Shown in pieces: positions 2,161-45,060 of a stretch of 64,000 nucleotides of DNA. A program made the position numbers and the translations under genes. This stretch comes from Candidatus Omnitrophota bacterium (GTDB lineage: Bacteria > Omnitrophota > Gorgyraeia > Velamenicoccales > JABMQK01). The number at the start of each line of letters is the position of its first letter. Position 1 is the first letter of the stretch. The notes beneath the pieces were generated by a model. The model saw only the letters and a program-made list of their open reading frames with translations. It did not search any database and was not told the origin of the DNA. The stretch is taken from the NCBI GenBank assembly GCA_042570265.1, contig JBHPGU010000005.1:228-64227 (forward strand), in the 5' to 3' direction.

Positions 2161-2919
2161 ATGTTTTTCTCTTACTTAAACAATAAATTTAAACAAACTA
2201 AGCACTACTGCCATCGTTTTGGTTTGAAAAAGTCTTTAATTAAAGTGGTGAGATCTGCATATTCAAAAATACATAGACAAATAGCTTGTATAGTGCTTGT
2301 GAAAGATTTGCTTGAAGAAACAAATTGCCCTATTGATTATAAGCTAAAATTACAAAAAATTGAAAAAATTCATTTAGACGCCTTGATAGAGTTTAATAGT
2401 AGATATGATTGGGGCACAGGCAGGATCTCCAATGCAAAAATTAACGATTATTTTGAAAAAAATTATGAAGGTTTTATCGCTTTTTTTGAAGGTAAAATTG
2501 TCGGCTATTTGTGGTGGGTCGACAATTCTACAAAAGCCAGAAAAAGTTATCCTCACCTCACCTTGTTTGGAATTGAACTAAAGGATAATGATGCATATGG
2601 TTTCCATTACTTTTTGGCTCCCGAATTCAGGGGTAAACACAATGCTACTGAATTTATGTGCAAAGTCTTCTTTGATTTAAAAGATCTTGGTTATAAGCGA
2701 TTTTTCGGCATCGCCTATACTGATAATATTTCAGCCAGGTGGCTTTATAGGTTTCTCGGTTTTAAAGATGTCAAAAAGATTATGGATCACAGATTATTTT
2801 ATTTTGTATTGGTCGTTAATAAAACAATATTTATTAAAACTAGAAGACAGTATATGTATTATCCGTTTCATTACCGGGTTGTTTTTCCTTTTAGGAATAT
2901 TAAGATTTTAAATAGATAG
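2161..2919 (+). CDS. GNAT-like acyltransferase
   Basis: 252-aa ORF starting 4 nt after the previous stop. GNAT-like segments: FRGKHNATEFMCKVF and NISARWLYRFLGFKDV. Confidence 0.6.
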   Translation: MFFSYLNNKFKQTKHYCHRFGLKKSLIKVVRSAYSKIHRQIACIVLVKDLLEETNCPIDYKLKLQKIEKIHLDALIEFNSRYDWGTGRISNAKINDYFEKNYEGFIAFFEGKIVGYLWWVDNSTKARKSYPHLTLFGIELKDNDAYGFHYFLAPEFRGKHNATEFMCKVFFDLKDLGYKRFFGIAYTDNISARWLYRFLGFKDVKKIMDHRLFYFVLVVNKTIFIKTRRQYMYYPFHYRVVFPFRNIKILNR

Positions 2920-2945
2920 GGAAGTTTATCAAAGGAGATAAGTTT

Positions 2946-4349
2946 ATGAGCTTGCTCAAACGTTGGATAAAGAAACTCGTATTCCTGTTTGCCAGTTTTA
3001 TTATAAAGTTTATGGACCCGAAACACTGCATATCAGATCCTTCGATTTGGGATTTAAGCGTTAATGAAAATGATCATTTGGTCATTGGTGGCTGCGATTG
3101 CGATGAACTGGCGAAGGAATACGGTACACCGCTCCACATTGTTGATCAGAGCAAACTGGTTGCTAATTACAGTAATTTTTGTCATAGTTTCAAAACATAC
3201 CAGAAAGATGCAGAGGTTTACTACTCCTATAAGACTAATCCCATTCCCGGGGTATTAAAGATGTTGCACCAGCAGGGGGCCGGAGCAGAAGTAATTTCAC
3301 CGTATGAGCTTTGGCTTGCTTTTAAGCAGGGAGTTGCTCCGGATAAGATAATTTATAACGGGCCCTGCAAATCCGGCGAATCTTTGAGAACCGCCGTTGA
3401 CAAGCAGATCAAGCTTATCAATATTGATTCTCTTGACGAGATCGACAGAATTTCACTTATTGCAAAGGAGTTTGGTAAGGTTGTTCAAGTTGGAATAAGA
3501 GTATGTAGCGGTGTTGGCTGGTCGCATCAACTCGGCCTTAAAATAAAGACAGGGGAAGCATTCCAGGCATATAAAAGGTGCGCAGCTGACGAAAATTTAA
3601 AAATTTGTGCAGTGCATGTCCATCTAGGAACATGCTTAAATGATCCATCTGTATACACTGAAGCAATCGCAGCTATTCTGGAATTCATTAAAGATATAAA
3701 GGATCAATTAGGCATTGAGATTGAATATCTTGATTTGGGTGGTGGTTTTGCAGTACCTACGGTCCAACACTTTAGCAAATATAAGTCCAGGTTTTATAAA
3801 TGGGCTGGGTATGGCGCTCCTCCTCCTGAACTAGAAGATTGCCCATCAATAGAAACCTTTGCAAAAAATATTGTTGGGCATATTGATGAGAAGTGTAAGC
3901 AGTTTAATTTAAAGAAGCCGACCTTGCTTCTTGAGCCGGGAAGAGCGATAACCAGCAGCGCTCAAATTTTACTTATCAAAGTAAGTTCAATCAAACGCAA
4001 GAATGAGAAAACAAAGGTTATCATTGCAGATGGTGGGATAAATCTTGCCTATCCGGCAACATGGGAATACCATGAAGTATTTTTAGCAAACAGGATGAGT
4101 CAAAACAGAGAAGAATTTTATAGTATCTCAGGTCCGATCTGTACTCCTGCAGATAAAATATACTCATACAAATTGCTGCCCCGTATTCAAAAAGGGGATA
4201 TTTTAGCAATTATGGATGCCGGAGCTTACTTTATTCCTTTTTCGAACAACTTTTCTTTTCCTAGACCGGCTATTATAAACACCTTTCAAGGCAAGCATTA
4301 CTTGTTACGTCAAAGAGAGACTTTTGAAGATATTGCAAGAATTAGTTAA
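2946..4349 (+). CDS. PLP-dependent decarboxylase, fold-type III (Orn/DAP/Arg decarboxylase family)
   Basis: PLP-lysine motif YYSYKTNP, glycine loop LDLGGGF, C-terminal GPICTPADK. The 467-aa length fits the family. Confidence 0.85.
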   Translation: MSLLKRWIKKLVFLFASFIIKFMDPKHCISDPSIWDLSVNENDHLVIGGCDCDELAKEYGTPLHIVDQSKLVANYSNFCHSFKTYQKDAEVYYSYKTNPIPGVLKMLHQQGAGAEVISPYELWLAFKQGVAPDKIIYNGPCKSGESLRTAVDKQIKLINIDSLDEIDRISLIAKEFGKVVQVGIRVCSGVGWSHQLGLKIKTGEAFQAYKRCAADENLKICAVHVHLGTCLNDPSVYTEAIAAILEFIKDIKDQLGIEIEYLDLGGGFAVPTVQHFSKYKSRFYKWAGYGAPPPELEDCPSIETFAKNIVGHIDEKCKQFNLKKPTLLLEPGRAITSSAQILLIKVSSIKRKNEKTKVIIADGGINLAYPATWEYHEVFLANRMSQNREEFYSISGPICTPADKIYSYKLLPRIQKGDILAIMDAGAYFIPFSNNFSFPRPAIINTFQGKHYLLRQRETFEDIARIS

Positions 4350-44216: not shown

Positions 44217-44244
44217 TTGATTTTTTTTGGATTTTCTGTATAAT
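44217..44244 (+). promoter_or_regulatory. Putative sigma-70 promoter for tRNA-Asn
   Basis: TTGATT (44217-44222), 16-nt spacer, consensus TATAAT (44239-44244). Lies 60 nt upstream of the tRNA. Confidence 0.5.
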
Positions 44245-44339
44245 TAAGAACGCTTTTATTTGTTAACTTACGACTAATAACTAACAACTAACGACTAGAT
44301 CAATTCCCCTGTAGCTCAGTTGGTAGAGCGGGTGGCTGT

Positions 44340-44880
44340 GCGCGAGCGAAGCAAGCGCAAACAATTGCTTCGCAGTATGAAGAAAGGAGGTGACAGGTTG
44401 GCAAAAGTCGAACAGCGCAAATATAGCGATAGACGCCAATACCTTATTAAGGCGGTTCATAAAAGGCGTAAAAAAATACGTCAAATGGCTGTGGAATATA
44501 AGGGCGGATGTTGTGAGCAATGTAGTTATGATCGTTGTGTTGAAGCGCTTGAGTTTCATCATTGTGACTCTTCTCGCAAAGACTTCAGTATATCTCAAAA
44601 GGGATATACGCGGAGTTGGAAGAGAGTAAGAATGGAACTTGATAAATGCAAAATACTATGTGCCAATTGTCACCGAGAACTCCATGCTAAGTTAGCAGCC
44701 TCTAGCGGTAACGCTAGAGTGAAAAGTGGGCTAATTCAGGGAAACCGTAACGTAAAGCCGACGGCAATCCTGAGCTATTTGCCAAATATTATGGCAGAGA
44801 GTGCAGAGACTTTACACCCACCATCCCAGATTTTGGGATGAAGAGAAAGTCCGACTCTTAAGGAAACTTAAGTCAGATCG
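44340..44880 (+). ncRNA. Group I (IC3-like) self-splicing intron
   Basis: The 5' exon ends in U and the intron ends in G. Core elements: P2 hairpin CTCTAGCG-GTAA-CGCTAGAG (44700-44719); P3 GTGGG (44726-30)/CCCAC (44817-21); P4 TCAGGG (44736-41)/TCCTGA (44768-73); GGGAAACC; P6 TGCCA/TGGCA (44780-96); GTGCAGAGACT (44801-11); P8 CATCCCA/TGGGATG (44822-40); P9 CTTAAG-GAAA-CTTAAG (44857-72). Confidence 0.8.
44377..44841 (+). CDS. Intron-encoded HNH homing endonuclease
   Basis: HNH/zinc motif: GGCCEQCSY...LEFHHCDSSRKDFSIS...KCKILCANCHRELH. In-frame start candidates are ATG 44377 and TTG 44398; the latter follows AAAGGAGGTG. The last ~50 codons run through the ribozyme core. Confidence 0.8.
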   Translation: MKKGGDRLAKVEQRKYSDRRQYLIKAVHKRRKKIRQMAVEYKGGCCEQCSYDRCVEALEFHHCDSSRKDFSISQKGYTRSWKRVRMELDKCKILCANCHRELHAKLAASSGNARVKSGLIQGNRNVKPTAILSYLPNIMAESAETLHPPSQILG

Positions 44881-44929
44881 TAACCACCATGTCCGAGGTT
44901 CGAGTCCTCGCGGGGGAGTGAAATTTCAT

Positions 44930-44965
44930 AACCCTCTGCAATGAAATATGTTGTGGAGGGTTTTT
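44930..44965 (+). terminator. Terminator-like hairpin after tRNA-Asn
   Basis: AACCCTC ... GAGGGTT stem (7 bp, 19-nt loop) followed by TTT. Confidence 0.4.
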
Positions 44966-45060
44966 GATTTTAGTTTTCGAACTAAGTGATTTTAAACTTA
45001 TTTGGTGGTATACTGGTAATAAAGAAAGATGATGTTATTGAATAAGGTTGGTTATTTATT

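Follow-up and report, generated by a model that had tools for sequence, protein, structure and literature searches.

How does a bacterium obtain its asparagine tRNA from a gene that lies in two pieces, and what is the sequence that separates them? This question is raised by a 64,000-nt stretch of a Candidatus Omnitrophota genome (contig JBHPGU010000005.1; this whole stretch is in the following called the window), in which two segments 541 nt apart had been proposed, in a preliminary description, to form a textbook tRNA-Asn(GUU) gene that is split by a group I intron carrying an HNH endonuclease. Taken as a whole, the observations on this locus are best explained by a self-splicing intron of group I within tRNA-Asn(GUU) with an HNH gene in its P1 loop that acts in homing, an explanation that we consider very probable.

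When the two exons were joined, the resulting sequence of 73 nt was called as tRNA-Asn(GUU) by ARAGORN. The spliced tRNA shows the pair U1-A72, G73, the anticodon loop CU-GUU-AA and the variable loop AUGUC. The insertion point lies in the anticodon loop between U35 and U36, P1 and P10 being formed with the anticodon stem-loop, and both boundaries obey, as had been stated, the rules for group I introns, with a 5′ exon that ends in U and an intron that ends in G. The identity as a group I intron is supported by the Rfam covariance model Intron_gpI (RF00028), which matched positions 44665-44873 over the full model (1-253) with 79.4 bits (E = 1.6e-18), the gathering score of this model being 50 bits. 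In a scan of the window, the split gene was called neither by ARAGORN at default settings nor by the Rfam tRNA model. The intron mode of ARAGORN, which the preliminary description had proposed to run, did detect it but labeled it tRNA-Thr(cgt), and across loci the labels were tRNA-Thr(cgt/tgt). This label is artefactual, since the boundaries are ambiguous by 2 nt and the program sets both of them 2 nt upstream; the U/G boundary rule, the P1/P10 pairing and homology all pick Asn(GUU). For the exon calls across loci, explicit exon joining in combination with a profile of the core replaced the intron mode. A second tRNA-Asn was not found by the tRNA scans within the 64-kb window.

The pairing between intron and exons is provided by an internal guide sequence that lies within the open reading frame (ORF) of the endonuclease. 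Its part GCAGCC (44695-44700) pairs with the exon sequence GGCUGU to form P1, with a G opposite U35 as the G.U pair at the splice site, and its part GUUA (44691-44694) pairs with the UAAC that opens the 3′ exon, thereby forming P10. In a comparison anchored on the homologous position after the CxNCH motif of the endonuclease, GCAGC(C/U) was present in every locus, and relative to the ORF it occurs in three different frames, being read as L-A-A, as Q-S-stop (the stop being the UAG of GUUAGCAGCC) or as V-S-S. The sequence is therefore conserved as RNA and not as protein. In hosts with the 3′ exon start UAAU (loci L030, L045, and L051), AUUA replaces GUUA, which constitutes a compensatory change in P10. 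One sub-family (L022, L024, L025, L036, and L182-L186) carries AAGC or AGAC instead of GUUA on the 5′ side of GCAGCU, so that no obvious P10 pairing with UAAC is given; its P4 reads UUGCUG/CAGCAG instead of UUCAGG/CCUGAG.

From the guide sequence to the terminal G the core measures 190 nt, and it is compact, with single P2 and P9 hairpins capped by GNRA loops, a simple P5, and neither P5abc nor P2.1. Covariation was tested in an alignment of 38 compact intron cores with a curated structure that includes P7 as a pseudoknot. RNAalifold predicted 34 pairs, 23 of which are compensatory, i.e., changed on both sides with the pairing kept. In the curated structure, 98.8% of the cells are paired, versus 77.0% in shuffles and 29-49% with slid partners, and its covariation score of 0.633 (0.203 in shuffles) was reached by none of 500 shuffles. 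The G and A positions of the tetraloops on P2 and P9 are invariant in all 38 sequences. Since P7 does not vary either, it contributes no covariation evidence. As judged from these alignments, the helices of the ribozyme core are maintained by selection. Compensatory pairings in P3, P4, P6, and P8 as well as GNRA-capped P2 and P9 hairpins had been described before; all of these fold, and covariation was found in P3, P4, and P8, but the alignment did not resolve it for P6.

The core strings TCAGGGAAACC, GGCAATCCTGAGC, and GTGCAGAGACT, which had been recognized as those of the trnL(UAA)-type core, are all present in the intron. With the trnL primers as printed in the literature, GGGCAATCCTGAGCCAA (g) and CCATTGAGTCTCTGCACCTATC (h), it was confirmed that GGCAATCCTGAGC falls within primer g and GTGCAGAGACT within the reverse complement of primer h. 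The tRNA/IC3 type fits the intron, and an affinity to it appears supported by these shared trnL core strings and by the compact core. The coordinates of all features are listed in Table 1.

Table 1. Positions (window numbering) of the elements of the split tRNA-Asn unit and of its ribozyme helices.
Feature	Position	Strand	Remarks
Promoter-like site	44217-44244	+	TTGATT, 16-nt spacer, TATAAT; consensus scan 10/12; pattern match only; about 60 nt upstream of the tRNA
tRNA-Asn 5′ exon	44305-44339	+	35 nt; tRNA positions 1-35; ends CUGU
Exon strand of P1	44334-44339	+	GGCUGU, last six bases of the 5′ exon
Group I intron	44340-44880	+	541 nt; omega-G (terminal G) at 44880; Rfam Intron_gpI, exon joining, comparison with the empty site of L177
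Hairpin in the P1 loop (L1)	44346-44373	+	GCGAAGCAA...UUGCUUCGC; minimum free energy fold, -14 kcal/mol; 5′ end of the P1 loop, upstream of the ORF
Shine-Dalgarno-like site	44383-44393	+	AAAGGAGGUGA; AGGAGG ends 7 nt before the TTG start; read from sequence
HNH endonuclease ORF	44398-44841	+	147 codons from TTG 44398; alternative ATG 44377; TGA stop 44839-44841 inside P8
Internal guide sequence	44691-44700	+	GUUA-GCAGCC; within the ORF, AAG UUA GCA GCC = K-L-A-A
P2 hairpin	44701-44718	+	GUAA (GNRA) loop; 6/6 alignment-supported pairs changed on both sides; single-sequence fold
P3	44726-44730 / 44817-44821	+	Covariation and fold; encloses P4, P5, P6 and the 5′ strand of P7
P4	44736-44741 / 44768-44773	+	Covariation and fold
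P5	44745-44748 / 44761-44764	+	Covariation and fold
P6	44778-44784 / 44792-44798	+	Single-sequence fold only; not resolved in the alignment
P7	44808-44811 / 44848-44851	+	GACU / AGUC; invariant, 100% paired in 38 aligned sequences
P8 hairpin	44822-44828 / 44834-44840	+	CAUCCCA / UGGGAUG; 3/4 aligned pairs compensatory; fold
P9 hairpin	44857-44872	+	GAAA (GNRA) loop; 5/6 pairs compensatory
tRNA-Asn 3′ exon	44881-44918	+	38 nt; tRNA positions 36-73; starts UAACC; includes G73, no CCA encoded
Terminator-like hairpin, then T-run	44930-44972	+	Pattern scan; hairpin at 44930-44962

The P1 loop extends from the 5′ splice site to the guide sequence (44340-44690) and holds a hairpin, comparable to hairpins that are also seen in ORF-less relatives, a Shine-Dalgarno-like site, which has a homologous counterpart (GAAAGGAGGUGA) in L211, and the ORF. 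The enzyme proper corresponds to about codons 1-105 (44398-44712), and the frame continues across the guide sequence and the core into P8, the remainder of the ORF thus being read-through of the ribozyme core. The N-termini of homologues begin with MAK. That the intron carries an HNH endonuclease was borne out by PHROGs profiles (phrog_2255, 3106, and 35854, all annotated as "HNH endonuclease"), which matched with E-values from 3e-27 (phrog_2255) to 5e-18, and by the motifs of the protein. Among 68 sequences, C39, C42, H54, H55, C88, N90, C91, and H92 (numbered from the TTG) are invariant and H96 is at least 90% conserved. This corresponds to the pattern CxxC...HH...CxNCH...H, i.e., the catalytic His...Asn...His flanked by two CxxC zinc-binding pairs. 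A profile search of the PDB matched Escherichia coli McrA (6ghc) at the CxNCHRELH motif with E = 0.0033. An AlphaFold2 model is confident for residues 9-110, and the predicted local distance difference test score is below 50 for residues 111-147, which the ribozyme core encodes; the tail is therefore probably unstructured read-through. Among the intron-borne ORFs, 81 of 82 are ungapped over 90 codons. Nonsynonymous divergence from the window copy (pN) amounts to 0.13-0.18 per site in the closest copies (median 0.18), as against saturated synonymous values (pS) of about 0.75-1.0. By this comparison, the HNH ORF is under strong purifying selection.

The arrangement found in the window is not restricted to it. 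In a protein collection, 1,213 relatives of the ORF product were found at E ≤ 0.001, with 59-81% identity among the 120 listed, and a scan of one genome per species yielded 541 confirmed HNH loci. The best 80 of these 541 are mostly labeled Omnitrophota or "uncultured Planctomycetia," other labels among them being Melainabacteria, Nitrospirae, Deltaproteobacteria, Bacteroidota, Patescibacteria, Aerophobetes, NPL-UPA2, Scalinduaceae, and Gammaproteobacteria. In total, 94 bacterial loci, fetched through the HNH protein, were examined. Intron_gpI matched in all 14 metagenomic relatives retrieved by the exact protein with 58-93 bits. In 88 of the 94 loci (89 of 95 when the window is counted), an intron of 312-711 nt interrupts tRNA-Asn(GUU) at U35|U36, and the remaining six end at or just after the HNH gene because the contig ends there; two of them still show the intron core. 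The RecR protein encoded in the window, whose gene ends 88 nt upstream, has no identical entry on record and is closest to that of genomes labeled Omnitrophota (59-61% identity), and the arrangement of recR with tRNA-Asn is encountered again in more than 30 named genomes. An Omnitrophota origin of the window is accordingly probable. The family is thus present in hundreds of genomes, and what surprises is its undescribed status rather than its rarity.

Next to the ribozyme, the host tRNA was also checked for signs of selection. Among the 89 spliced tRNAs there are 67 different sequences, and pairing was scored in 65 of them. In these 65, pairing reaches 100% of the cells in the acceptor, D, and T stems, where several types of compensatory pairs are seen, and 95.7% in the anticodon stem, and U1-A72 as well as G73 are invariant. 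As the split gene is kept intact in so many hosts, we infer that it must yield a working tRNA and that the intron would be removed in vivo.

For orthologous loci, 80 metagenomic loci anchored on RecR were surveyed. Thirteen of them contain an intact tRNA-Asn(GUU) downstream of recR, and 16 contain the intron core, with both exons defined in 15. Of these 15 introns, 14 are ORF-less and 196-375 nt long, and one has an ORF-like size (536 nt). As the P1 loops of the ORF-less introns measure only 8-90 nt, the ORF presents itself as an insertion into this loop. An exact empty site is found in L177, whose RecR is 73% identical to that of the window: the sequences matching the two exons are contiguous there (1919|1920) in an uninterrupted tRNA-Asn that shares 95% identity with the 5′ exon and 89% with the 3′ exon. 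Together with the 13 intact genes, this locus provides the intron-less alleles that the preliminary description had proposed to look for as a homing-site polymorphism. The identity of the HNH protein to the window copy stays at 65-80% while that of RecR drops from 81% to 38%, and the two do not track each other (Spearman rho 0.28, p = 0.16, n = 26). The side-by-side occurrence of intact, ORF-less, and ORF-bearing forms at the orthologous recR locus indicates a mobile intron, and the pattern is as would be expected for a homing intron that was gained, then lost its ORF, and then was lost itself. The minimal ORF-less introns (L182, L184, L253, and 11 other RecR-anchored loci) have about the size of the Azoarcus ribozyme and may serve as small model ribozymes. 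A 992-nt "intron" that the intron mode of ARAGORN reported in L218 was unsupported on re-examination.

From these elements, the following course of events may be proposed. Transcription of the unit would probably start at a promoter and stop at a terminator of its own, both of which are predicted by pattern. In the transcript, GUUA-GCAGCC would pair with the six exon bases that precede the 5′ splice site, giving P1 and the G.U pair at this site, and with the first four bases of the 3′ exon (P10). An exogenous G would then attack the 5′ splice site, and the freed 3′-OH of U35 would attack after the terminal G (44880), giving the 73-nt tRNA. The HNH gene in the P1 loop, whose frame continues through the guide sequence and the core, would be translated from its own Shine-Dalgarno sequence, and its product would most likely cut the intron-less tRNA-Asn gene near the anticodon region, with repair copying the intron in, i.e., homing. 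Nothing in this mechanism departs from the known biology of group I introns and HNH enzymes. New aspects would be the host tRNA, the type of endonuclease for a tRNA intron, and the unusual overlap of ORF and guide sequence.

Other explanations of the locus have to be weighed against this one. A mere chance resemblance, in which two tRNA-like fragments flank an unrelated HNH gene, would agree with the failure of the default tRNA finders to call the gene and with nothing else; it is already refuted by the E-value of the covariance model (1.6e-18), by the identical architecture at 88 other loci, by the covariation controls for the fold, and by the exact empty-site junction in L177, and practically no weight remains for it. 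It would also be conceivable that this copy is a disrupted pseudogene, with an uninterrupted tRNA-Asn elsewhere in the genome doing the decoding and no need to splice. The check for a further tRNA-Asn covered 64 kb only, and some relatives do have a tRNA-Asn away from recR (L175 and L176). However, all helices of the window are intact, and so are its guide sequence, the terminal G of the intron, the cloverleaf of the exons, and the ORF; the core score is on par with that of relatives, and compensatory exon changes keep 100% pairing over 65 hosts, unlike in decaying pseudogenes. A pseudogene is therefore regarded as very improbable for this copy, and for the family as a whole this reading is rejected.

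Greater weight is given to a third explanation, which we nevertheless judge unlikely, namely that the intron splices but is essentially immobile, being vertically inherited in Omnitrophota like the tRNA-Leu intron of cyanobacteria and plastids, with the HNH protein kept for a maturase-like folding role or another role in the host. The synonymous saturation between all copies at a protein identity of 65-80% points to long persistence under selection, the recR-tRNA-Asn synteny with intron in the more than 30 named genomes also speaks in its favor, and the overlap of the ORF with guide sequence and core ties the protein to the RNA. On the other hand, in close relatives the same locus is without the intron (L177) or without the ORF, and the identity of the HNH protein fails to follow that of RecR. 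Split tRNA-Asn hosts labeled as several phyla (Melainabacteria, Bacteroidota, Nitrospirae, and Deltaproteobacteria) differ in their exon sequences, and the persistence of ORF-less introns implies that the protein is dispensable for the maintenance of splicing. To our knowledge, there are also no HNH maturases. Some observations have to be counted against a self-splicing homing intron with an HNH gene as well. Profiles of Pfam-A and NCBIfam gave no match to the ORF, and although the top Foldseek matches of the model in the PDB are nearly all HNH nucleases (Cap5, ZRANB3, T4 endonuclease VII, Cas9 HNH, and Gme HNH), each of them is individually non-significant (E = 0.13 or worse). The taxon labels are those of the depositors of the metagenome-assembled genomes (MAGs), in which binning errors are possible. 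Finally, even the copies most similar to each other show saturation at synonymous sites, so that the family is old, and much of its spread in Omnitrophota could therefore be vertical and not due to recent homing.

The homing intron remains the preferred explanation, and relatives of its endonuclease are also found outside of introns. A set of 80 viral loci (L095-L174; IMG/VR contigs, 80 of 506 confirmed loci; HNH match usually at 3001-3250) contains HNH relatives of 38-61% identity as free-standing genes within tRNA arrays, which average 6.5 tRNAs per locus. Intron_gpI had no match in the 20 viral contigs scanned. In 31 of the 94 slots that directly neighbor the viral HNH gene, the tRNA is tRNA-Asn(GUU), versus 9.7% of all array tRNAs (binomial p = 4.7e-10), and tRNA-Asn adjoins the HNH gene in 30 of the 64 non-redundant viral loci; more distant relatives adjoin tRNA-Arg(UCU). 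A further arrangement is found in L073, a locus from an Omnitrophota MAG (1492-2290), where a free-standing HNH gene of 98 aa (1492-1788) lies just upstream of a split tRNA-Asn with an ORF-less intron of 312 nt (1939-2250). At its 3′ end (AAAGTTAATAGCC), this gene is similar to the stretch around the guide sequence in the intron-borne copies. Phage arrays and L073 together indicate that the enzyme is tied to tRNA-Asn DNA independently of the intron. These forms resemble the stages of a model reportedly put forward by Bonocora and Shub, in which free-standing endonucleases become intron passengers step by step.

No tRNA-Asn intron of a phage was found in a search of phage GenBank entries, which yielded only partial similarity to HNH genes and short stretches of the core. 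The core stretches (H11-H15) are 46-55 nt long, correspond to about 44721-44775 of the window with 86-92% identity, and are located within the gene for DNA polymerase in Ralstonia phage BOESR1 and in unannotated regions of Vibrio phages, where they probably mark group I introns. Within phage tRNA arrays, matches to the Rfam abiF RNA were observed near the HNH gene in L115 (2447-2483) and L116 (2268-2304), scoring 53.8 bits at a gathering score of 37.

Full-text literature searches, with subscription journals mostly outside their coverage, turned up neither a tRNA-Asn group I intron nor an HNH-bearing tRNA intron, in agreement with the initial impression that no such host or intron was known. 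The genes in which tRNA introns are mentioned are those for Leu, fMet, and Ile and, through a citation, Arg, and no others (PMC3984707, a review from 2014 on bacterial group I introns; PMC8450103, on tRNAscan-SE 2.0), and no phage tRNA gene was known to hold an intron, phage group I introns being located in protein-coding genes (PMC3984707). Some reports were considered and are not prior descriptions, since the "group I introns" of 22-49 nt in PMC5733544 are too short for ribozymes, PMC13153191 deals with a 23S rRNA intron of an Omnitrophota member, and PMC1924603 with IStrons. The intron of the window is regarded as a real and functional bacterial tRNA group I intron, and one that has probably been undescribed so far. 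With regard to its anatomy, it is similar to the tRNA-Leu intron in its anticodon-loop site, in a core that is compact (about 190-250 nt) and lacks large peripheral domains, in P1 and P10 being built from the anticodon stem-loop, and in GGCAATCCTGAGC and GTGCAGAGACT, which are common to both. The tRNA-Leu intron of cyanobacteria and plastids, reportedly described by Kuhsel et al. in 1990 in a paper listed in PMC3984707, is inserted at U34|A35 instead of U35|U36, is ORF-less, and is regarded as a largely vertically inherited, textbook "ancient intron." Here, in contrast, the host is tRNA-Asn, the host organisms are mainly Omnitrophota and not cyanobacteria, and many copies contain the HNH gene. 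Minimal introns of about 200 nt, similar to the ORF-less tRNA-Asn relatives of 196-239 nt, are found in Azoarcus tRNA-Ile(CAU) and Agrobacterium tRNA-Arg(CCU), as is said to have been reported by Reinhold-Hurek and Shub in 1992. They share the GNRA tetraloops at the ends of P2 and P9, the G and A of which do not vary in the tRNA-Asn intron, and differ in host tRNA and bacterial groups. We know of no ORF in these two introns, of which the Azoarcus intron is a structural model, its structure being cited in PMC3984707.

An endonuclease within a tRNA intron is in itself not without precedent. A Synechocystis tRNA-fMet intron encoding I-SspI, which is not an HNH enzyme, was reportedly described by Bonocora and Shub in 2001. 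This intron of Synechocystis PCC 6803, which is cited in PMC3984707 and PMC5733544, is the one case among bacterial tRNA group I introns for which an endonuclease ORF is known to have been described. Apart from carrying its endonuclease within the intron, the system is similar in that the target of I-SspI is the anticodon region of the tRNA gene without intron, and it differs in its host (fMet) and in its sporadic distribution within cyanobacteria. I-HmuI of SPO1 and I-TevIII are HNH endonucleases of phage group I introns and share with the present case the location of an HNH homing endonuclease in a peripheral loop, whereas the HNH protein of the tRNA-Asn intron is only about 105 aa long, has two CxxC pairs, and overlaps the guide sequence. 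For the free-standing forms, SegB of phage T4 is an example of a free-standing endonuclease in a tRNA gene cluster (PMC2330249). The phage relatives of the HNH protein are likewise free-standing in tRNA arrays, but SegB is a GIY-YIG enzyme. The constellation of L073, with its HNH gene just upstream of a tRNA-Asn with an ORF-less intron, is similar to that of the cyanophage psbA gene. For the latter, Zeng, Bonocora and Shub are said to have described in 2009 a "collaborative homing," in which a free-standing endonuclease acts together with an ORF-less intron. In contrast to SegB and psbA, the same HNH lineage is seen here in three settings, namely as a free-standing gene, as a free-standing neighbor of an ORF-less intron, and within the intron itself.

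All these observations might imply that tRNA-Asn(GUU) represents an undescribed class of intron host that is found through much of Omnitrophota and scattered elsewhere, that is the first with an HNH gene, and in which an endonuclease lineage is caught at every stage from free-standing gene to passenger, i.e., free-standing by a phage tRNA-Asn, free-standing by an ORF-less intron (L073), and within the P1 loop overlapping the guide sequence; we lean slightly towards this joint reading. The Asn host with its HNH gene, present in hundreds of species from a phylum about which little is known, extends the list of tRNA-intron hosts (Leu, fMet, Ile, and Arg). According to its authors, tRNAscan-SE is not designed to detect such introns (PMC8450103), and as default ARAGORN and the Rfam tRNA model also miss the gene, host genomes will appear to lack tRNA-Asn. 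If tRNA-Asn indeed is such an undescribed host class, this tRNA would be wrongly scored as missing in hundreds of genomes, and the HNH lineage in its three settings would offer a series found in nature on which the invasion of introns by homing endonuclease genes could be tested. Should the split gene be the only tRNA-Asn gene in its genome, all decoding of asparagine codons (AAC/AAU) would depend on RNA self-splicing.

Several loci contain additional genes next to the tRNA. A small GIY-YIG gene of about 80 aa is located -2 to 44 nt upstream of the 5′ end of tRNA-Asn in L001 (1665-1907), L002 (1674-1997), L040, L057, L089, L179, L253, L213, and L214, in varying contexts (after recR or fur); in L213 and L214 it abuts an intact tRNA-Asn, and the window has no such gene. 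In L007, a Melainabacteria contig, a called PD-(D/E)XK gene (PDDEXK_1; 2517-3101) starts inside the 3′ exon of the split tRNA-Asn; either its start was called wrongly, or a nuclease gene directly adjoins the tRNA. In the window itself, the leader that follows the promoter-like site and precedes the tRNA (44250-44300) consists of a run of short ACTAA/CGACTA-like repeats (ttaacttacgactaataactaacaactaacgactaga).

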